NCBI GenBank assembly: GCA_046351255.1
Contig: JAXLYU010000005.1
Span: forward strand, 1,146,583-1,210,582
DNA from: Labilithrix sp.
Lineage (GTDB): Bacteria; Myxococcota_A; Polyangia; Polyangiales; Polyangiaceae
DNA: 64,000 nt
Direction: 5' to 3'
Part shown: positions 38,835-47,456 of the stretch, in pieces
Layout: the number at the start of each line of letters is the position of its first letter
How positions within the stretch are numbered: the stretch's first letter is position 1
Position numbers and translations under genes: made by a program
Notes under the pieces: model-generated
Seen by the model: the letters and a program-made list of their open reading frames with translations, nothing else
What the model was told of the DNA's origin: nothing
The model's database searches: none

Positions 38835-39761
38835 TCACTCCGTCGCGGCCTTGGGCTTTGGCTTCCTCTTCTTCTTCGGTGGCACCGCGGACGCCGACGC
38901 GGACGGTGCGGCGGAGGCGGACGCGGACACGCTGGCCGGCGCGGCGGACGCGGAGGCCGACGCGACGAGCTTCGCGCCCGCGTCGCCATCGGTCACGCCG
39001 CGGAGCGCGGCTTCGACCTTCTTGTCGTCGATCGAGCCGTCGATGTCGATGTCCCAGTCGGTCTCGGTCGTGCCCGTCGCGAGCACGCCGGTGAGGAGCA
39101 GGCCCTTCACGGTGATGACGACGCGGTCGCCTTCGTGGAGCTTGTCTCCGATCGCGGCCCGGAGATCCACGATGAGATCCTCCCGGCCCTTCGATGTCAC
39201 GTCCGAGAGATGCGAGTACTGGATGTCGATGAAGACGCGGCGGGGCGCCGGCTCCGTGATCTGCGTGATCACGCCGAGCTCCGCCTTCTTGAAGCCTCGA
39301 TCCACGACGAGGGCTGCACACACGGCGTCGGCGAGCTCCTGCGCGCCCGGACCTTCGCCCCAGGTCGTGCCCGTGAGCAGATGCTCCTCGAGGCGCATCA
39401 CCTCCTTGTGCTCGGGGGTCGGCGGCGGCGGCGGCGGCGCAGTCGCGACCGCGATACCGATGAAGACGAAGAACGCGAGCATGCCTCCGCCGAGCACGAT
39501 GAATGGCACGAGGATGCCGCTGCGATCGAGGAAAGGCATCTTCGGGATCGGGTAGGGCGGGCGCCCGTACACGGAGTAACCGCACACGGTGCAGGTGGCG
39601 CTGATCTGCTCGCCGAACGAGAAGAGCGGGAAGAAGAAGAAGTGGCCGGTCTTGTACTGACGGCGCCAGTGGATCTGCGCCACGTTCTGGCAGCGCGGAC
39701 AGCGGTCCGACGAGGGCGGTAGCATGACGTCCCGCTGGTATCGCCCAAAGATGAGAAGCAT
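38835..39761 (-). CDS. Zn-ribbon membrane protein with poly-Pro, Ala/Ser-rich and Lys-rich C-terminal segments
   Basis: CPRCQ...CTVCGY (zinc ribbon), one TM helix (ILVPFIVLGGGMLAFFVFIGIAVA), PPPPPPTP, ASASASAAPASVSASASAAP, KKKRKPKPK tail. Start at the ATG at 39761. Confidence 0.5.
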   Translation of the reverse strand: MLLIFGRYQRDVMLPPSSDRCPRCQNVAQIHWRRQYKTGHFFFFPLFSFGEQISATCTVCGYSVYGRPPYPIPKMPFLDRSGILVPFIVLGGGMLAFFVFIGIAVATAPPPPPPTPEHKEVMRLEEHLLTGTTWGEGPGAQELADAVCAALVVDRGFKKAELGVITQITEPAPRRVFIDIQYSHLSDVTSKGREDLIVDLRAAIGDKLHEGDRVVITVKGLLLTGVLATGTTETDWDIDIDGSIDDKKVEAALRGVTDGDAGAKLVASASASAAPASVSASASAAPSASASAVPPKKKRKPKPKAATE

Positions 39762-39866
39762 CGACGGGGCGTAGCATTTGCGGCGGGGTGCGCCACGTTC
39801 GGACGGGACGCGCTCGAACCGTGAGAAGCGGGAAACATTCGAGATTTCAGGGTAGGATCCGCGGCC

Positions 39867-41159
39867 ATGTCCTCGGCGATGGAGCGAGCGCGGGCGGTCC
39901 TGGCGACGGCCAAAGCAAAGGCCGACCAGCTGGCGTCGATCGAGCCGTACCTCATCGATCTGTCCCTGCGCGAGAACGTCTTCGGGTCCGACGTTGGCCA
40001 GACCCTCGCTGACAAGCTCGCCATCCTCCCGCAGCTCCGCGCGTTCGGCTTTCAGAACATCCTCCTCGGGACGCTCGACTACGCCCTCTCCGACGAGCCC
40101 GAGGTCGACGACGACTTCATGCAATACCTCCGCGATCACCAGATCGACATGACCGGAGGGTTTGCGTTCACCGACATCGGCCTCGCCGACGGCAGCGGCA
40201 ACTTCACGCCGTCGGTGTCGATGCAGAAGCTCCAGAGCTATCGCGTCCCGAACACGCTCCACGAGATCTACGTGAGCCCGCAAGGCATGAAGTCCGCCGG
40301 GTACGACTTCACCACGATGTATCGCAGCCTGGGCCCGACCATCGCCTGGCTCAACGAGAACGTCGTCGGGGATCACGGCGGCAAGCCCCGCATCCTCATC
40401 AACATCGTCGACGGGTGCGACGCGCTCATGGAGAACATGGACCAGACCGCGGAGGTCCTCTCGTTCCTGGCCACGCAGCCGATCGAAGGCGTGAGCATCG
40501 AGGACGATCGCGGGACGTACATGCCGTTCCAGGTCGGCGCCATCGTGGCTGCGGCGCGGAGCCTCTTGCCTCCGCCGCTCAAGATCCTCGTCCACATGCA
40601 CACGGGCGCGGGCTTCGAGAACGCCTCCGTCATCGAGGCGCTCCTGAACGGCGCGGACGGCGCCTGGGGCGGCCTTCCCAAGCGCGCCGCCATCATCGGC
40701 CATGCGTCGCTCGGCGAGCTCATCGCGAACCTGGTGCGCGTCGGCAATCCGAACATGGCCTCCGCGTACCAGGTGAAGGATCTGCTTCCGCTCGCGACCC
40801 GGCTGCAAGAGCTCGACAGCGAGTCCAGCGTCCCCGACGACGAGCCGATCCTCGGCGCAAATGCTTATCGCCTCACGCTCGACTTCTTTCGCCAGACGAG
40901 CACGCGCTTCATGGATCTCCCGCCGGACGTCATCGGGGGCGCGTACGGATATCGGGTTTGCCCGCTGGCGGCCGACGCGATCGTCCTCGCGGGCCGTCTC
41001 GCGGAGGTCACCGGCCGGGATCCGGCGAGCTTCCCCGCCGAGGTCCTCGAGATGATGATTCGCATCATGCGCCGCGACCTGCGGAGCGCTCGAAAGATCG
41101 TGTACGACGAGCCCACGGCGCTCCTCGACCTCCATGCGCGTGCAGGAGGCAAGTCATGA
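39867..41159 (+). CDS. DRE-TIM metallolyase (HMGL-like / pyruvate carboxyltransferase) family protein
   Basis: N-terminus IDLSLRENVF parallels the DTTLRDGEQ motif. LVHMHTGAGFENASVIEALLNGADGAWGGL...GHASLGELIANL parallels the HxH...G.AN..AA..AGA...GLGER.GN..LEE pattern of HMG-CoA lyase and isopropylmalate synthase. Confidence 0.5.
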   Translation: MSSAMERARAVLATAKAKADQLASIEPYLIDLSLRENVFGSDVGQTLADKLAILPQLRAFGFQNILLGTLDYALSDEPEVDDDFMQYLRDHQIDMTGGFAFTDIGLADGSGNFTPSVSMQKLQSYRVPNTLHEIYVSPQGMKSAGYDFTTMYRSLGPTIAWLNENVVGDHGGKPRILINIVDGCDALMENMDQTAEVLSFLATQPIEGVSIEDDRGTYMPFQVGAIVAAARSLLPPPLKILVHMHTGAGFENASVIEALLNGADGAWGGLPKRAAIIGHASLGELIANLVRVGNPNMASAYQVKDLLPLATRLQELDSESSVPDDEPILGANAYRLTLDFFRQTSTRFMDLPPDVIGGAYGYRVCPLAADAIVLAGRLAEVTGRDPASFPAEVLEMMIRIMRRDLRSARKIVYDEPTALLDLHARAGGKS

Positions 41160-42115
41160 GCGAGGGCGCGGGTGGACCGATGTCGAAGTCGTCGCGCTTC
41201 GTCGACGGCAGTATCTACAAGACATTGCTCGAGTCGACGAAGGCGATCCCGTGGAAGATCGACTGGGCGACGTCGACGTTCGCGTACATCGGACCGCAGA
41301 TCGAGGACCTCCTCGGCTGGACGCCGGAGAGCTGGGAGACGGTGCAAGATTGGGCGTCGCGCATGCACCCGGACGATCAGAAATGGGTCGTCGACTTCTG
41401 CGTCGCGCAGTCGAAGGCCGGCGTCGATCACGAGGCCGATTACCGCGCGATGACGAAGGACGGCAAATACATCTGGATCCGCGACGTCGTGCACGTCGTT
41501 CGAGACGACGCCGGAAACGTGCTGTCGCTCATCGGGTTCATGTTCGACATCAGCGAGCGAAAGCGCACCGAGGAGCAGCTCTTGAAGCTCCAGCGCGAGC
41601 TCGAAGACCTCTCGTACCGCGACGGCCTCACGAACGTCGCCAATCGCCGCCATTTCGACAGTCAGTTCGAGATCGAGTGGAAATCGGCGCGGCGGAACAA
41701 GGTGCCGCTCTCGCTCGCCCTCATCGATATCGACTTCTTCAAGCAGTACAACGACACGTACGGTCACGTTCGGGGCGACGAGTGCCTGAAGCGCGTGGCG
41801 GCCACGCTCGTTGGGCGGGTATCACGCCCGCGCGACATGGTCGCCCGCTTCGGCGGAGAGGAGTTCGCCCTCCTCCTGCCCGAGACCGACGCGCCGGGCG
41901 CGCTTCACATCGCGACCGCCTGCCTCGAGTCGATCTCCGGCGAGAAGATCACCCACGACCGCTCCGAGGCGGCGCCGGTGGTCACGATCAGCGTGGGCGT
42001 CGGAACGGTGGTGCCGTCCTCCGACGACGATCCCACCCGCTTCCTGGACGAGGTCGACCAGTGCCTCTATCGCGCGAAGCAGTCCGGCCGCAACCGGCTC
42101 ATCGCGCGGAAGTGA
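41156..42115 (+). CDS. PAS + GGDEF diguanylate cyclase
   Basis: ATGA overlap with the upstream gene and a GGAGG Shine-Dalgarno. PAS domain (YRAMTKDGKYIWIRDVVHVVRDDAGNVLSLIGFMFDISERKR). RFGGEEFALLL (GGEEF active site) with RxxD-like upstream context. Confidence 0.85.
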   Translation: MSEGAGGPMSKSSRFVDGSIYKTLLESTKAIPWKIDWATSTFAYIGPQIEDLLGWTPESWETVQDWASRMHPDDQKWVVDFCVAQSKAGVDHEADYRAMTKDGKYIWIRDVVHVVRDDAGNVLSLIGFMFDISERKRTEEQLLKLQRELEDLSYRDGLTNVANRRHFDSQFEIEWKSARRNKVPLSLALIDIDFFKQYNDTYGHVRGDECLKRVAATLVGRVSRPRDMVARFGGEEFALLLPETDAPGALHIATACLESISGEKITHDRSEAAPVVTISVGVGTVVPSSDDDPTRFLDEVDQCLYRAKQSGRNRLIARK

Positions 42116-43091
42116 CGCTCATCGCGATCACGAGGATGTTGGCGATCACGTAGAGGGCCGGCAATCCGAGGGCGAATCGCCGGTCGATGCGCTTCGACGC
42201 GTCTTCGCGGCCGTGCTCGAAGAGCCAGAGCGAATACGTCGACTGGGCGAGCGTGACGAAGATCGCCGCGTACGCGACCACGTGCAGCTTGTCGGCGAGG
42301 GTCGCGGCGCCGATCTCGGGGAGGCCGCTCGATACGGTGTATTCGCTCGCAATGGCAGCGAAGATGGCGCCGACGCCGAGGCCGAAGCGGGGGTCCACGT
42401 TCGTGGGCTTGATGAAGAAGCAGAGGAAGGCGATCGCGGCCGCGATCCAGAGCGCGAAGAAGAGCTTGGCGAAGTAGGTATTCCCCTCGCGGCCCATCGT
42501 GATGGACGTGGTGATTCGCGAGTAGTCGCTCTCGTGATCCTTCGGGAGCGTGGTGTCGCCGAAGTTGGAGCGATAATGGCCAGTCCCGGCCTTCGTGCCC
42601 AGGAAGGTGAGGACGTAGCCCGGCATCTGCACCGAGGGAGCGATGGCGGAGTTCTCCTCGTCCGCCTCGTAGCGGATCACGGTGACGTCCTCCTTGTCCT
42701 CCTCGAGCGAGATATCGAGCTGATAGCGATCGAGCGGATACTTCCGGACGTCCCAGTACTTCGTGATCTTCACGACCACGCGATACGAGAAATAGTTGCT
42801 GCCGTCCGGTAGCGTGCGATTGCCGGTCTCGGTCTTCGAGTCGATGCGCCCGTCGATGAAGGAGAAGCTCTCGTTCGGCTTCGCGTCGCCCTTCCAGCGA
42901 AACCAGACGTAGAGATCGACCACGAAGAAGTTCTCCTTCAGGTTCATCTCGTGGATCTGGTTCAGGTACATCCCCGTCTTCACGACGGTGACGCCGGTGG
43001 GCGCGGCGGGCGCGGGCGTCGCGACCGCCCCGGCGTTCGAGGTGGTGAGCAGGGCGACGACGAAGGTCAGGGCGACGAGGAGCGCGCGCAC
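42099..43091 (-). CDS. Prokaryotic pentameric ligand-gated ion channel (Cys-loop receptor family, GLIC/ELIC-like) homolog
   Basis: Signal peptide, ~190-aa beta-rich ectodomain, then 4 TM helices. C-terminal SKRIDRRFALGLPALYVIANILVIAM closely parallels GLIC M4 TRASRIAFPVVFLLANIILAFLF. Confidence 0.6.
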   Translation of the reverse strand: MRALLVALTFVVALLTTSNAGAVATPAPAAPTGVTVVKTGMYLNQIHEMNLKENFFVVDLYVWFRWKGDAKPNESFSFIDGRIDSKTETGNRTLPDGSNYFSYRVVVKITKYWDVRKYPLDRYQLDISLEEDKEDVTVIRYEADEENSAIAPSVQMPGYVLTFLGTKAGTGHYRSNFGDTTLPKDHESDYSRITTSITMGREGNTYFAKLFFALWIAAAIAFLCFFIKPTNVDPRFGLGVGAIFAAIASEYTVSSGLPEIGAATLADKLHVVAYAAIFVTLAQSTYSLWLFEHGREDASKRIDRRFALGLPALYVIANILVIAMSVTSAR

Positions 43092-43095
43092 GCGC

Positions 43096-43413
43096 CTACG
43101 ATATACCGGTCTCCGCCAGCGCGTGAGCCAGTGCGCGCCGGCGCCGTGCGCGCGGCGCGTCGCCGAGCAGCTCGGAGACCTCCGCGTCGGTCTCGAGCAG
43201 CTTCACGAGCGCCCCGACTTTGTCTCCGGACATCATGCGGATGGACGCGGGGTCGAGGCGGTCGAGAACGAGGGTCGGCACGCCGACCTGCGAATACGCT
43301 GCGTCGATCTCGCGGCGCGTCTCCGTCGGGTGCTCGGCGGCGCGCCCGATCACGCGATTCGCGAGCTGCGCCATCTCCTCGAGGAGACGTTCGAGATAGT
43401 CGCGCTTGATCAC
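43096..43413 (-). CDS. Small hypothetical protein, GTGA-coupled to the upstream small gene
   Basis: GTG at 43413 overlaps the TGA of the upstream ORF (gtga). Translates to VIKRDYLERLLEEMAQLANRVIGRAAEHP... Confidence 0.35.
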   Translation of the reverse strand: MIKRDYLERLLEEMAQLANRVIGRAAEHPTETRREIDAAYSQVGVPTLVLDRLDPASIRMMSGDKVGALVKLLETDAEVSELLGDAPRARRRRALAHALAETGIS

Positions 43414-43712
43414 GAGGGGCTCCCCGGCGCGTCCGCGCGTTCCTGGACCAGGACGAAGGGCTGCACGACGAGCGCGGTCCAGGGCGAGCCCGTGCGCTTC
43501 GACCATTGCTCAATCGTCTCGAGGGTCGGCTTGCCGATGAGGCCGCGCTCGATCCACTCCGCCACGCGTGCCTTGTCGTCGCGGGCGACCGCCTCACCGA
43601 CCTCGAGAAGGTCGAGCTCGAGGGCGACCGTGATGACCGCGCCGCGGGTGAGGTGGGCGCGCAGGTCGGAGAATTCGATCGGGCCCATCCCCTCTTCCAG
43701 CTGCTTGCGCAT
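43410..43712 (-). CDS. Small conserved hypothetical protein (possibly DUF2288-like)
   Basis: MRKQLEEGMGPIEFSDLRAHLTRGAVITVALELDLLEVGEAVARDDKARVAEWIERG...PFVLVQE. 100 aa. Confidence 0.4.
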   Translation of the reverse strand: MRKQLEEGMGPIEFSDLRAHLTRGAVITVALELDLLEVGEAVARDDKARVAEWIERGLIGKPTLETIEQWSKRTGSPWTALVVQPFVLVQERADAPGSPS

Positions 43713-43808
43713 GTGCGACGCCTACCACGCGTGGTACGCAAACGACGTGGGCTTTGTTCCGTCTTTCTCACGCAACCGGCTCGAGCCGGCGGCCGAGGAT
43801 AGGCAAGG

Positions 43809-46800
43809 ATGAGCGTCCTCGTCGTCGCGGAGAAGCCGAGCGTGGCGCGTGACATCGCGCAGGTGCTGGGCGCTCGCTCGCGCGGCGAAGGCTATTTCCA
43901 CGGCGGCGCGTGGGTCGTCACCTGGGCCATTGGCCATCTCGTGGCGCTCGCCGAGCCTCACCAGATGAACGCGGCGTGGAAGAAGTGGCGCCTCGACGAC
44001 CTGCCCATCCTTCCCGAGCGCTGGCCGCTGGTACCGGGCGAGAAGACGCGCGACCAGTACGACGTCGTTCGTCGTTTCCTGCTCGACCCGGCGGTACGCG
44101 GCGTGGTCTGCGCGACGGACGCGGGGCGCGAGGGCGAGCTCATCTTTCGCTACGTCTACGAGGCGGCGCGCTCGAACAAGCCGGTGAAGCGGCTGTGGAT
44201 CTCGTCGCTCACCGCGGAGGCGATCGCGCAGGGCTTCAAGTCCCTCGCGCCGGGGGCCGACTTCGACCGTCTCGCGGACGCGGCGCGCGCGCGTAGCCGT
44301 GCGGACTGGCTCGTCGGCATGAACCTCTCGCGCGTGTACAGCCTCCTGCACGACGACAACCTCAGCGTCGGGCGCGTCCAGACGCCGACGCTCGCGATGC
44401 TCGTCGCGCGCGAGCTCGAGATCCGCGACTTCGTGCCCGAGGACTACCTCGAGGTCGTCGTGGACTTCGGACCGGAGAAATATTCCGGCACGTTCGTCGG
44501 CGAAAAGAAGGAAGCGGCGCGGCTCGAGCCCGACGGGGAGGCGGCGAACGCGATCGTCGCGCGGGCGAAGACGGGGCAGGCGGCGGTCGAGTCGGTCGAG
44601 CGAAAGACGCGGAGGCTCCCGCCGCCGCAGCTCTACGATCTGACGGAGCTCCAGCGCCACGCGAATCGGCTTTACGGCTTCACCGCGCAGCGCACGCTCC
44701 AGATCGCGCAGAAGCTCTACGAGGAGCGAAAGCTGATCACGTATCCGCGTACGGGCAGCCGGCATCTCTCCCGCACCGTCGCCGAGCAGCTCCCGAACGT
44801 GGTGCGCGCGATCGAGGAGCCGTACCGGGCCATGCTCGCGGCGGGCACCGGCGCCCGCCCGCTCGGGCCGCGCTTCGTGGACGACACGGAGGTGACCGAC
44901 CACCACGCCATCATCCCGACGGAGAAAGAGGCCCCGGGCGATCTGCCTCCCGACGAGAAGCGCATCTACGACCTCGTGTGCCGGCGCCTGCTCTCGGCGT
45001 GGCACGGCGATCACGTCTTCGCGGTCACGAGCGTCATCACCGCGATCGTGAATCCCGATCATCATGATCGCTATCTGAGCTCCGGCACGAGCGTGGAGGA
45101 GCAAGGCTGGAAGGTGCTCGATATCGGCTTTGGCCGCCCGCCGAAGGACGCTCCACCGACGCTCCCGGGCGGGCTCGCGCGAGGGCAGAAGAAGGTCGTC
45201 CTGGACGCGAAGGCGGTGAAGAAGCAGACGCGTCCGCCGCCGCGCTTCACCGACGCAACACTCCTCACCATGATGGAGACGGCGGGGCGCCTCGTCGACG
45301 AGCGCGAGCTCTCCCAGGCGATGCGCGAATGCGGCCTCGGCACGCCCGCGACGCGCGCGGCGATCATCGAGACGCTGCTCGCGCGCGAGTACATCGTTCG
45401 AGACGGCAAGGCCTTCTCCGCGACGGACAAGGGCATCGCTCTCATCGGGCTCGTCCACCCGCACGTGAAGAGCCCGGCGATGACGGGCGACTGGGAGTCG
45501 AAGCTCGCGCGCATCGAGCGGGGAACGGAGAGCCTCGACGGCTTCATGAAGGCGATCGAGGCCTGGGTGAAGGAGGTCGTCGGCAACGTCGCCGCGTCCA
45601 CGCCGGCGCCCCCGCGCCCCCGCACGCCCGCGCCCGGAGCGGCGGCGCCGCCGCCCTCCGGAGCGGCGCGCCCCCCGAAGACGGAGCGCACGCGCGAGCT
45701 CGGGCCGCTCCTGCGCGACGCCTTCGGCTTCACCGAGTTTCGGCCGTATCAGGAGGAGGTGTGCAAGGCCGCGGCGGGCGGGCGCGACGTGCTCCTCGTG
45801 ATGCCCACCGGCGCGGGCAAGTCGCTCTGCTATCAGCTCCCGGGGCTCGCGCGCGGCGGCACGACGCTCGTGATCAGCCCACTCATCGCGCTGATGGAAG
45901 ACCAGGTCGCGCAGCTCACGAAGCGCGGCTTCGCGGCGGAGCGCATTCACTCCGGCCGGCCGCGGCTGGCGTCGCGCGAGGCGTGCCAGGCGTATCTCGC
46001 GGGCGATCTCGATTACCTCTTCATCGCGCCCGAGCGGCTGCGCGTGCCGGGATTCCCGGAGATGCTCGCGCGCCGCAAGCCGGCGCTCATCGCCATCGAC
46101 GAGGCGCATTGTATTTCGCAATGGGGACACGATTTCCGTCCCGACTACCGGCTCCTCGGCGACCGGCTGCCACTCTTGTGTCCGTCGCCGGTGATCGCGC
46201 TCACCGCGACCGCCACGCCAGGCGTGCAGGACGATATCGCGGCCCAGCTTCGGCTCGACAACGCCGCGCGCTTCATTCACGGATTCCGGCGCACGAATAT
46301 CGGTGTCGAGGTGGTGGAGCGCAATCCCGGCGAGCGCGCCGCCATCGTCGTCGACCTGCTCTCGAAGGCCGAGCGGCGGCCCGCGATCGTCTATGCCCCG
46401 ACACGCAGCGATGCGGAGAAGCTCGCCAGCGAGCTGAAGAAGCTCCGCGCCGCCGCGTACCACGCCGGGCTCGGCGCTGACGTGCGCGATCGCGTACAGG
46501 CCGCCTTCCTCGGCGGCAAGCTCGACGTCATCGTCGCGACGATCGCGTTCGGGATGGGCATCGACAAACCCGACGTGCGCACCGTCGTCCATACCGCGCT
46601 GCCGTCGTCCGTCGAGGGTTACTACCAGGAGATCGGTCGCGCCGGGCGCGACGGCAAGCCTTCGCGTGCCGTCCTCTTGCACTCCTTCGTCGACACGAAG
46701 ACGCACGAGTTCTTCCTCGAGCGCGACTATCCCGACGTCGACGTCGTCGCGAAGGTGGCGAAGGCGCTCGCCGCCTCCGGCGAGGACGCGACGGCCGCGA

Positions 46801-47456
46801 AGATCGCCAAGAAGGCGAAGGTGAAGACGGAGATCGTGCAGAAGGCGCTCGAGAAGCTGCAGATCCACGGCGCGGACCCCGACTGGCGCCGCGCCTACGA
46901 GGCGCAGCGCGCGCACAAGCGGGACGCGCTCGACCGCATGCGGCGCTTCGCAGAGAGCGCCACGTGCCGGATGCTCCAGCTCGTCACGCACTTCGGCGAC
47001 GAGCGCGACGGCGGCGCGCCGTGCGGGATCTGCGACGTATGCGACGCGAGCGCGTGCATCGCCCTCTCGTTCCGCGCGCCGAGCGCGCTCGAGAGCGACG
47101 CCGCCGAGCGCATCGTCGCCGCGCTCCGCGGGAAGGACGGTCGCTCCGTCGGCCAGATCCTGCGCGAGGTGTTTCCGGAGAACGAGCTCGATCGCCGCGG
47201 GCTCGACCACGTGCTCGCCGCCCTCTCCCGCGCGGGGGTGGTCGAGCTCGTGAACGACGAGTTCGTGAAGGACGGCAAGACGATCCCGTTCCAGCGTGTC
47301 TGGCTCGAGAGCGCAGACGGTACGACCAGCGCTCCGCTCCGCGTCGTCATCACGCCGCCGAAGAAGGCGAAGCGCGGGAAGGGGGCGACGAAGAGCGACT
47401 CCGCGCGCCGAGCGTTCTTCGCGCGCCGAGCGAAGGGGAAGAAGAAGCGGAAATGA
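43809..47456 (+). CDS. Fusion protein: type IA DNA topoisomerase III (N-terminal ~600 aa) + RecQ-family DEAH helicase with RecQ-Ct zinc module (C-terminal ~580 aa)
   Basis: Toprim [18 protein letters not shown] and the Topo IA active-site Tyr region [13 protein letters not shown]. After a Pro-rich linker: FRPYQEEV...[18 protein letters not shown] (helicase motif I), [20 protein letters not shown] (DEAH), [32 protein letters not shown] (motif VI), [13 protein letters not shown]...CGICDVCD (Zn-binding RecQ C-terminal region). One uninterrupted 1215-aa reading frame. Confidence 0.9.

Follow-up and report, generated by a model that had tools for sequence, protein, structure and literature searches.

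The minus strand of a 64-kb stretch of DNA from the soil myxobacterium Labilithrix sp. (the window) carries an open reading frame that was taken, in a preliminary description, for a homologue of the GLIC/ELIC type of pentameric ligand-gated ion channel (pLGIC), and its 3' end runs into that of a convergent PAS-GGDEF gene. The locus raises the questions of whether this frame encodes such a channel, what might gate it and which ions it might conduct, and whether the two genes form a unit. Bacterial pLGICs (GLIC, ELIC, sTeLIC and DeCLIC) are structural workhorses for the understanding of neurotransmitter receptors; what they bind natively and what they do for the cell are, so far as we are aware, essentially unknown. 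Prokaryotic pLGICs were reportedly inventoried by Tasneem et al. in 2005. Our reading of the locus, to which we give a probability of about 0.85, is that the gene encodes one subunit of a prokaryotic Pro-loop/Cys-loop pLGIC that would form a homopentameric, periplasm-sensing channel, and that the GGDEF gene beside it is incidental. The features of the locus are listed in Table 1.

Table 1. Features of the channel locus (window coordinates; residue numbers are those of the channel protein)
Feature	Coordinates	Strand	Remarks
PAS_3 + GGDEF diguanylate cyclase	41180..42115	+	311 aa; GGEEF active site, RxxD I-site
Tail-to-tail overlap of pLGIC and PAS-GGDEF coding regions	42099..42115		17 bp; not conserved in closest orthologous loci
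pLGIC (Pro-loop receptor) subunit gene	42099..43091	-	330 aa; start codon GTG, stop codon TGA
M4 helix (296-329), after a short M3-M4 linker	42105..42206	-	I-D-R...L-P...A-N motif
M3 helix (265-292)	42216..42299	-	Clade-invariant D267, H270; preceding M2-M3 loop has P258
Pore: D233 (-2'), P234 (-1'), R235 (0'), then M2	42327..42395	-	Register from HMMER alignments
M2 pore residues	42327..42395	-	G237 (2'), G241 (6'), F244 (9'), A248 (13'), Y251 (16'), S255 (20')
M1 helix (205-226)	42414..42479	-	Ala213 at usual kink-proline position (GLIC P204)
Periplasmic beta-sandwich ligand-binding domain (23-204)	42480..43025	-	Sequence alignments, AF2 model
Loop C (175-186), SNFGDTTLPKDH	42534..42569	-	N176, G178, D179 near-invariant
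Pro-loop tip Y118-P119-L120-D121	42729..42740	-	[F/Y]PxD signature; P119 invariant in clade
Signal peptide (about 1-22), MRALLVALTFVVALLTTSNAGA	43026..43091	-	Hydrophobicity; model N-terminal helix 2-16; cleavage site inferred
ORF hyp105	43096..43413	-	105 aa, no known domain; upstream, ends 4 nt before pLGIC start
DUF2288 gene	43410..43712	-	First gene of putative operon

The gene and its neighbours

The minus-strand frame is the true coding frame. Its GC3 is 0.915, while the overlapping plus-strand ORF has the pattern of an antisense shadow. A dN/dS of 0.12 against the 87-89% identical orthologue in a Labilithrix-like contig (L001) showed that the gene is under purifying selection. More than 280 homologues could be aligned over 81-99% of the length of the protein, and full-length homologues, which have 28 invariant positions in common, are present in hundreds of genomes. 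High-GC DNA gives rise to many long spurious ORFs in this region, and no obvious Shine-Dalgarno sequence was seen at the GTG start of the channel gene, as might be expected if the frame had decayed or lost its function, or were a product of calling ORFs in a GC-rich genome. Against this stand the dN/dS value and the GC3 pattern of a true frame, the full-length homologues with their invariant positions, a confident predicted fold, and the location of the GTG 4 nt past the upstream stop codon, a spacing consistent with translational coupling; the artefact explanation is effectively refuted already, and its probability is negligible. No paralogue of the channel was found within the window. A genomic island at the channel gene was also considered and ruled out, since the GC content around the gene (0.655-0.665) shows no anomaly relative to the range across the window (0.64-0.715).

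Upstream, the GTG start of hyp105 overlaps the stop codon of the DUF2288 gene (GTGA), and DUF2288, hyp105 and the channel gene are probably co-transcribed in the Labilithrix lineage as a putative lineage-specific operon. By tblastn across 86 homologous loci, DUF2288, hyp105, TopoIII-RecQ and HMGL-like genes are neighbours of the channel only in three Labilithrix-like contigs (L001-L003) that are nearly identical to one another. All-against-all clustering of the ORFs within 3 kb on either side of the channel at the 86 loci gave no operon partner conserved beyond single lineages; synteny was found at the level of the lineage only, with T6SS-like and YqhA-like genes of Azospirillum in 12-14 loci. 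The neighbourhood offers no clue to the ligand. A scan of positions 40800-44200 was uninformative as well, giving no sigma-70-like promoter sites and one terminator-like site, which lies inside a coding sequence and is at chance level.

The convergent 17-bp overlap with the PAS-GGDEF gene, recorded in the preliminary description, is real, and it had been read there as a hint of linked regulation. Such a functional or regulatory unit could act through antisense or transcriptional interference, or by coupling ion flux into c-di-GMP signalling. The tail-to-tail order is indeed kept in L001-L003, in which the channel is 87-89% identical, and there is no intrinsic terminator-like site between the two genes. 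In these orthologous contigs, however, the channel and GGDEF genes adjoin each other (6951/6953) and do not overlap; a C-terminal extension of 4 codons accounts for the overlap in the window. The neighbours are unrelated in homologues that are 61% and 52% identical, and GGDEF was rejected as a conserved association, as tblastn found it as a neighbour in only those three of the 86 homologous loci. A GGDEF gene was not seen in the immediate neighbourhood of the channel in any of 80 other genomes examined, and within 6 kb it occurred at two of these 80 loci, both from WOR-3 and at distances of 1.6 and 4.6 kb, a frequency close to that expected of so abundant a domain. Regulatory coupling is unsupported, because the GGDEF neighbour is limited to close Labilithrix-like relatives and does not overlap the channel gene there; the clustering of neighbours described above points the same way. 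A channel-GGDEF unit is thus very improbable, and the PAS-GGDEF gene looks incidental, with the overlap as a local accident.

Membership of the pLGIC superfamily

A phmmer search against the PDB returned an ELIC-GABA-A chimera (1.7e-13), ELIC (6e-10), DeCLIC (8e-9), sTeLIC (9e-7) and GLIC (1e-5). ELIC, from Erwinia/Dickeya chrysanthemi (PDB 2VL0, 2YN6, 3RQW), is therefore the best single natural match by sequence. With a profile of the channel's clade, GLIC (Gloeobacter violaceus, PDB 3EAM) was aligned over its full length with E = 1.9e-16 (36-326/13-310), and a GLIC-GlyR chimera gave 3.6e-19. Results with the Neur_chan profiles of Pfam, which had been proposed as a check on the channel's identity, were divided: Neur_chan_LBD (PF02931) was significant at 6e-5, though below threshold at 23 bits against a gathering cutoff of 26, and was matched by 32 of 40 clade members, whereas PF02932 found no match in the channel protein. 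The NCBIfam models LGIC_1 (6e-9, 35.7 bits against a cutoff of 500) and LIC (27.7 against 280) likewise fell short. The label 'hypothetical protein' that the gene product has at NCBI is explained by these thresholds being missed despite significant E-values.

Of seven signature positions of the superfamily, the channel has six. The tip of the beta6-beta7 loop has the form [F/Y]-P-x-D, with a proline that is 100% conserved superfamily-wide (Jaiteh et al. 2016, Table 1, PMC4795631). Here it is Y118-P119-L120-D121, which aligns to ELIC F119-P120-F121-D122, so that the proline expected in the Cys-loop equivalent is P119 (ELIC P120); in the clade, the proline is kept in 256 and the aspartate in 246 of 259 sequences. 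R201 aligns with ELIC R199 and GLIC R192 (245/259), the buried beta9 aromatic (GLIC W160) is Y159 (W in 184, Y in 43 and F in 26 of 259), and the M2-M3 loop proline (GLIC P247) is P258 (250/259). The basic residue at M2 0' is R235 (258/259), and position 9', Leu or Phe in the superfamily, is F244 (255/259). Phe at 9' is a minority variant found in 13% of the superfamily, and the M1 kink proline (GLIC P204) is Pro in 77% and Gly in 5% (PMC4795631). This last position is the exception in the channel, where it is A213; the clade has Gly in 156, Ala in 52 and Pro in 11 of 259 sequences, and just 26 of the 259 have a proline anywhere within M1. As the M1 proline position is variable rather than obligatory, A213 does not exclude membership. 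The channel fits the superfamily definition of the Jaiteh et al. 2016 inventory (PMC4795631), which lists both Phe at 9' and a residue other than Pro at M1 14' as minority variants. No cysteine occurs in residues 110-125 (TKYWDVRKYPLDRYQL), where the Cys-loop pair would be sought, and the sole cysteine of the protein is C224 in M1. Judged from its sequence, the channel is of the prokaryotic Cys-less type, without the metazoan Cys-loop disulfide pair.

Hydrophobicity analysis and an AF2 monomer model (pLDDT 85.4, pTM 0.75) agree with the architecture first proposed for this ORF, namely a signal peptide, a beta-rich ectodomain and four transmembrane segments. The N-terminus varies among homologues yet is always hydrophobic; further hydrophobic segments correspond to M1, M3 and M4. 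The M2 helix is amphipathic and rich in Gly and Ala. In the model, a beta sandwich (35-200) is followed by helices at 205-226, 234-254, 265-292 and 296-329, that is, by four C-terminal helices after an N-out ectodomain. A Foldseek search of the PDB with this model gave pLGICs as all of the top 50 matches (E ~1e-21, TM 0.66-0.78). The top structural matches were the eukaryotic anionic receptors GlyR alpha1, GABA-A alpha1/beta3/rho1 and GluCl, and GLIC matched with a TM of 0.71-0.78 at 18-19% identity. Significant matches to both Cys-loop receptor profiles and structures, the signature residues and the fold bear out the identification as a GLIC/ELIC-type channel homologue.

The channel resembles ELIC in size and architecture, in the absence of an N-terminal helix and of any additional domain, and in its short M3-M4 linker, although the two sequences are highly divergent despite significant HMMER E-values. 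Unlike ELIC, it has no M1 proline, and two stretches are deleted from it, the W-x-P segment that precedes loop A and some of the beta2-beta3 region. GLIC likewise retains the M1 proline and a W-I-P-E motif; between beta2 (WFRW, 63-66) and the P95-D96-G97 turn, the channel ectodomain is about 19 residues shorter than that of GLIC, and no canonical W-x-P motif was found before loop A in the alignments. The deletions are confined to these two regions, and F78-I79-D80 may be equivalent to ELIC F78-I79-N80, in a part of the alignment that is uncertain. With the anionic Cys-loop receptors the channel has in common R0'-x-G-L-G at the start of M2 and I-D-R...F/L-P before M4, but it lacks their Cys-loop cysteines, N-terminal helix and long M3-M4 cytoplasmic loop, and its 9' residue is Phe and not Leu. 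The M4 segment had been described as strikingly GLIC-like. The GLIC M4 motif (R..R..FP...LANI) does align with the channel M4, but identity in the HMMER alignment is limited to 6 of 23 positions (I, R, P, A, N, I), and by this comparison the likeness is that of the general pLGIC pre-M4/M4 motif (I/L-D-R...P...N), which is ordinary for the superfamily.

Pore, ion selectivity and candidate agonist pocket

The register of M2 was fixed by HMMER alignments to M2 of GABA-A alpha1, GlyR and GLIC, all of which agree. The channel has G2', G6', F9' and Y16' where ELIC has Q2', T6', L9' and F16', and it also differs from GLIC, which has I9' and I16' with polar residues at 2' and 6'. In the clade, M2 is almost invariant (D-2', P-1', R0', G2', G6', F9', A13', Y16'), with G2' in 225 of 259 sequences. 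The acidic residue of the selectivity filter, D233, lies at -2' and is followed by Pro, unlike in ELIC, and aligns with GLIC E222. Since a ring of Asp233 would occupy this position, cation selectivity is more likely, and the channel is probably cation-selective. This assignment is uncertain, as transmembrane-domain scores favour the anion-selective GABA-A and GlyR domains over those of GLIC and ELIC, and Pro adjoins R0'. Among solved chains, the highest scores belong to chimeras with eukaryotic anionic receptor transmembrane domains, from GABA-A alpha1 or GlyR alpha1, the start of M2 (R-F-G-L-G-V) is nearly that of GlyR (R-V-G-L-G-I), and the Pro directly before R0' is reminiscent of the anionic P-A-R motif. 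However, the channel reads D-P-R, so that the Pro is at -1' rather than -2' and there is no neutral Ala at -1', and the residue aligned with the GLIC selectivity glutamate is a near-invariant Asp (211/259). To our knowledge, the prokaryotic pLGICs characterised so far (GLIC, ELIC, sTeLIC and DeCLIC) are all cation-selective. An anion-selective channel is possible but less likely.

For the probable cation channel, the following mechanism can be proposed. After cleavage of the signal peptide, five identical subunits would assemble in the inner membrane with their beta-sandwich domains facing the periplasm, and a small molecule or ion would bind at the subunit interfaces. The putative pocket would be framed by E130 from loop B, by the loop-C residues F177, D179 and Y190, and, on the complementary face, by Y61 and Y42. 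Binding would be signalled through the YPLD Pro-loop, a predicted salt bridge of R201 and the M2-M3 loop with P258 to the pore, which would open at a hydrophobic gate formed by a ring of Phe244 (9'), with the ring of Asp233 at the cytoplasmic mouth of the pore. We infer that the most likely function is that of a homopentameric periplasm-sensing channel that is gated at Phe-9' and has an agonist pocket of the acidic/aromatic kind seen in ELIC.

The orthosteric site of ELIC is an aromatic cage with acids, comprising E77, E131, F133, Y175, F188, Y38 and F19 (PMC3316889). Five of these seven residues have kept equivalents in the channel by alignment (E131, Y175, F188, Y38 and F19 corresponding to E130, F177, Y190, Y61 and Y42), as has ELIC R190 (R192); the region around E77 could not be aligned reliably, and F133 corresponds to D132. 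Loop C is equal in length to that of ELIC and aligns without gaps, which places F177 and Y190 on the cage residues Y175 and F188. In contrast, loop C of GLIC is about 10 residues shorter, and GLIC has a single principal-side aromatic. These positions are well conserved in the clade: E130 is present in 255 of 259 sequences, position 177 is F/Y/W in 239 and position 190 Y/F/W in 246, positions 42 and 61 are aromatic, and loop C is almost invariant as N-F/Y-G-D. The loop-B glutamate is equivalent to GABA-A beta2 E155, but in place of the loop-B aromatic (ELIC F133, nAChR W149) there stands a residue that is acidic or polar (Asp, Glu or Asn). Because of this replacement and the deletion of the W-x-P segment, the predicted pocket copies no characterised one. 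By analogy with ELIC, it suggests a cationic, amine-type ligand.

It is also conceivable that no organic agonist gates the channel and that its chief stimulus, as for GLIC, sTeLIC and DeCLIC, is pH or the depletion of divalent cations. GLIC is proton-gated, and of the four bacterial channels that have been structurally characterised, three are gated by pH or Ca2+ (PMC9897478). In the clade, the ectodomain and interface hold many invariant ionisable residues (D59, D114, E130, D179, D267 and H270), and the N-x-G-D of loop C might bind a metal ion. However, the length of loop C is that of ELIC, and the ELIC cage positions are still aromatic and accompanied by the loop-B glutamate. Gating by pH or divalent cations is thus a minority reading that deserves some weight.

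A widespread and unannotated clade

The clade to which the channel belongs comprises about 1,029 clusters at 50% identity, and relatives occur in at least 489 species-level genomes of many phyla, among them Myxococcota, Planctomycetota, Acidobacteriota and WOR-3, as well as cultured Azospirillum. The view that bacterial pLGICs are sporadic, which had been applied to this gene, does not suit such a distribution. All clade members inspected were annotated as 'hypothetical protein' or not annotated, and the homologues on Azospirillum chromids in a plasmid collection were also unannotated or 'hypothetical'; routine annotation does not see the clade, which scores under the Pfam and NCBIfam cutoffs. 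When the literature was searched for accounts of this clade, only work on GLIC, ELIC, sTeLIC and DeCLIC was returned. The names Myxococcota, Azospirillum and Planctomycetes do not appear in four supplements of Jaiteh et al. 2016, which may list accessions only.

The channel gene itself adds no new principle; it is a member of a large, well-conserved and unannotated clade. What is unusual in this clade is that a putative Phe-9' gate is combined with Gly at 2' and 6', with the loss of the M1 kink proline, with a shortened ectodomain and with a loop C that is invariant. The near-invariant pocket and pore would imply that a single physiological ligand and a single conductance are conserved throughout a clade that spans phyla, an extrapolation from sequence that we hold to be rather doubtful. 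If it were true, the role of bacterial pLGICs would be directly testable in cultured Azospirillum brasilense, which is believed to be genetically tractable, and the clade would offer a naturally Phe-gated channel without an M1 proline for studies of gating. Since clade members are found in culturable Azospirillum, knockouts and physiology are feasible, and the invariance of the pocket suggests that a single agonist, once found, could transfer to the whole clade.

Identity of the channel gene

The 330-aa minus-strand ORF, previously described as a GLIC/ELIC-type pentameric ligand-gated ion channel (pLGIC), is present in the window and has a GC content of 0.565, 0.432 and 0.915 at codon positions 1, 2 and 3, resembling adjacent bona fide genes. 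The plus-strand ORF overlapping it has the mirror-image "shadow" pattern. Comparison of the channel gene with an orthologue of 87-89% identity gave a dN/dS of 0.12 (dS 0.62, dN 0.077), showing that purifying selection acts on the gene, which also has at least 287 matches among database proteins, those listed spanning 81-100% of its length. These three results indicate that the ORF is genuinely coding rather than an artefact of GC-rich sequence. An identical protein is recorded as 'MAG: hypothetical protein U0270_05685 [Labilithrix sp.]', Labilithrix being placed in the Myxococcota, Polyangia.

Features of the channel locus (window positions)
Feature	Coordinates	Strand	Description
Zinc-ribbon membrane protein	38835..~39700	-	Zn_ribbon_15 sub-threshold; long Ala/Ser/Pro/Lys-rich C-terminal tail
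430-aa ORF	39867..41159	+	HMGL-like (aldolase/TIM-barrel) match sub-threshold (E = 6e-5, 23 bits, cutoff 29)
PAS_3+GGDEF gene	41180..42115	+	311 aa; GGEEF active site, RxxD I-site
Channel gene	42099..43091	-	330 aa, GTG start (ORF listing)
hyp105	43096..43413	-	105 aa, domain-less; between DUF2288 and channel
DUF2288 gene	43410..43712	-	Upstream of channel
TopoIII-RecQ fusion	43809..47456	+	1215 aa

The Neur_chan profile search proposed in the preliminary description matched Neur_chan_LBD at E = 6e-5, but its 23 bits fall short of the Pfam gathering score of 26; the NCBIfam matches (LGIC_1, 6e-9; LIC, 1e-6) are likewise far under curated cutoffs. A phmmer search of all PDB chains returned pLGICs only (ELIC/GABA-A alpha1 chimera, 1.7e-13; ELIC, 6e-10; DeCLIC, 8e-9; sTeLIC, 9e-7; GLIC, 1e-5). 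Using a clade profile built from 40 homologues (alignment A1), positions 36-326 aligned over nearly the whole length with GLIC 13-310 at E = 1.9e-16, and the GLIC-GlyR chimera was matched at 3.6e-19. PF02931 was matched by 32 of these 40 members at E <= 0.01, and PF02932 by only 3.

An AlphaFold2 model obtained with A1 (mean pLDDT 85.4, pTM 0.75) bears out the proposed topology, with a signal helix (2-16) and a beta-sandwich ectodomain (35-200) followed by four C-terminal helices, M1 (205-226), M2 (234-254), M3 (265-292) and M4 (296-329). All of the top 50 Foldseek PDB matches were pLGIC chains (GABA-A, GLIC, GlyR, GluCl; E ~1e-21, TM 0.66-0.78). Hydrophobicity analysis, independent of the model, also picked out M1, M3, M4 and the signal segment, and the amphipathic, Gly/Ala-rich character of M2 is what a pore-lining helix should show. 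HMMER recovered the reported likeness of M4 to GLIC, but identity is limited to 6 of 23 residues and the pattern is a generic pLGIC pre-M4/M4 one, its I-D-R...P...A-N motif being present in the GABA-A and GlyR alignments also.

The most conserved superfamily positions listed by Jaiteh et al. 2016 (PMC4795631, Table 1 and text) were located using HMMER alignments to PDB chains and a 259-sequence clade alignment. The expected residues were found at all but the M1 kink, where A213 is no argument against membership since this position is just 77% Pro across the superfamily (PMC4795631). Phe at 9' is a minority state (13% of the superfamily), and both it and non-Pro M1 have already been recorded in prokaryotic inventories (PMC4795631). 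No Cys pair flanks the Pro-loop in the query, which is therefore of the prokaryotic Cys-less type. Profile and PDB matches, modelled fold and signature residues agree, and establish homology, fold and topology as those of a pLGIC; we put the probability that the protein is a family member forming a gated channel at about 0.9. Such proteins are well known, and the query is an unannotated addition to the superfamily.

Signature and pocket residues of the query and their conservation in the clade
Position	Query	Clade (259 sequences)
[F/Y]PxD, Pro-loop tip	Y118-P119-L120-D121	P 256
beta9 aromatic (GLIC W160)	Y159	mostly W
Pre-M1 Arg	R201	245
M2-M3 Pro	P258	250
0' basic residue	R235	258
9' Leu or Phe	F244	255
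M1 kink proline (GLIC P204)	A213	Gly 156, Ala 52, Pro 11
ELIC E131, loop B	E130	255
ELIC Y175, loop C	F177	F/Y/W 239
ELIC F188, loop C	Y190	Y/F/W 246
ELIC R190, beta10	R192	R 198
ELIC Y38, loop D	Y61	aromatic
ELIC F19, loop G	Y42	aromatic
ELIC F133, loop B	D132	aromatic lost

Pore and candidate agonist pocket

The M2 register, on which three independent alignments (GABA-A alpha1, GlyR alpha1 and GLIC M2) concur, places D233 at -2', P234 at -1', R235 at 0', G237 at 2', G241 at 6', F244 at 9', A248 at 13', Y251 at 16' and S255 at 20'. Among the closest 120 homologues these residues are near-invariant, and remoter representatives retain most of them. Two bulky aromatic rings (9' and 16') are set among very small pore residues, which points to F9' as a putative hydrophobic gate. 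The -2' selectivity glutamate of GLIC (E222) is matched in the alignment by D233; we lean slightly towards a cation-selective channel and consider an anion-selective one rather unlikely.

Between beta2, whose W63-F64-R65-W66 is invariant in the clade, and the P95-D96-G97 turn, the clade is approximately 19 residues (net) shorter than GLIC, the deleted stretch including the W-I-P-E of GLIC and the W-V-P segment of ELIC. Loop C (175-186) equals that of ELIC in length, and N176-F/Y177-G178-D179 is near-invariant in the clade. The crystallographically defined ELIC agonist pocket (PMC3316889) was transferred to the query via gap-free portions of the phmmer alignment, and pocket and pore residues alike are conserved clade-wide. 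Since an acidic-plus-aromatic pocket of similar kind binds primary amines in ELIC, an organic cationic (amine-type) agonist is, by analogy, the leading if tentative guess; gating by pH or divalent cations as the primary stimulus is considered only slightly less likely. If the protein works as established pLGICs do, the ectodomain would be exported by a Sec-dependent route, subunits would assemble as a homopentamer, and agonist would bind at subunit interfaces beneath loop C; coupling would run through the Pro-loop, pre-M1 Arg and M2-M3 loop, with F9' as the hydrophobic gate and the D-2' ring selecting charge.

Gene neighbourhood

The 17-bp overlap with the 3' end of the PAS-GGDEF gene (42099..42115) is real, and had been taken as a hint of linked regulation. 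Three Labilithrix-like soil-metagenome contigs carrying the closest channel orthologues (L001-L003, 87-89% identity) share the upstream arrangement and have TopoIII-RecQ as divergent and PAS-GGDEF as convergent neighbour, but in them the GGDEF gene directly adjoins the channel gene (6951/6953) without overlap; the overlap in the window arises from a channel C-terminus 4 codons longer, and is genuine but lineage-specific. Using tblastn against 86 loci, GGDEF was found only in these three contigs and two WOR-3 loci, in the latter 1.6 and 4.6 kb away. Channel homologues at 61% and 52% identity have unrelated neighbours (Pan_kinase/MarR at one locus, DUF1684/CNNM-CBS at the other), and unbiased clustering of flanking ORFs revealed no partner gene common to more than single lineages. 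A scan of the channel locus found no informative promoter- or terminator-like signals. Coupling of the channel to the GGDEF gene or c-di-GMP signalling thus lacks comparative support across the 86 loci and is very improbable, and the overlap is incidental.

On the channel strand, the start codon of hyp105 shares bases with the stop of DUF2288 (GTGA), and 4 nt separate the hyp105 TAG from the channel GTG, suggesting a putative three-gene operon, DUF2288-hyp105-channel, with translational coupling. When window neighbours were searched against the 86 loci by tblastn, DUF2288 and hyp105 were detected in L001-L003 only, and no other of these loci was found to have the three-gene order.

RecQ and TopoIII work as partners in E. 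coli, as do BLM/Sgs1 and Top3 in eukaryotes. The 1215-aa protein, with N-terminal Toprim/Topoisom_bac (topoisomerase III-like) domains joined to a DEAD/Helicase_C/RecQ_Zn_bind (RecQ) helicase, is by its domain content a natural fusion of this partner pair, and its counterpart in L001 is 89% identical. The 430-aa ORF stops 20 nt short of the PAS-GGDEF gene, on its upstream side, and tblastn found no homologue of it in the 86 related loci. The zinc-ribbon gene is nested in a far longer spurious ORF call (38835..41135).

In Azospirillum/Roseomonas-type loci (L031, L032, L040, L044-L046, L048, L050, L051 and related) the channel lies downstream of, and on the same strand as, T6SS-like genes (ImpA/TssA-like, Hcp-like, large TssM-like) and a YqhA/UPF0114-like membrane protein gene, identities judged by eye from sequence. 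These neighbours recur in 10-14 of the 86 loci and are probably lineage synteny only. A second ORF of the pLGIC cluster lies upstream on the channel strand in 10 of 86 homologous loci; tandem paralogy or a split gene call may explain these cases.

Distribution of the clade

A pattern scan in which each GTDB species was represented by one genome identified at least 489 relatives, the best 80 of which come from Myxococcota, Planctomycetota, candidate division WOR-3, Acidobacteriota, Verrucomicrobiota (Luteolibacter), Betaproteobacteria, Margulisiibacteriota and Chloroflexota, as well as from Roseomonas, Arenibaculum, Aquariibacter and many cultured Azospirillum. When 1.84 billion representatives at 50% identity were searched exhaustively with HMMER, 1,029 proteins matched at E <= 1e-30, 3,415 at <= 1e-10 and 6,911 at <= 1e-3. 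All named clade members among the matches listed are called 'hypothetical protein', and the copies on Azospirillum chromids are either without annotation or labelled 'hypothetical'. With these numbers the clade is common yet overlooked, and not sporadic, as the preliminary description had bacterial pLGICs to be. The contribution here lies in delimiting a large conserved clade that has culturable hosts and whose pore and pocket are distinctive.
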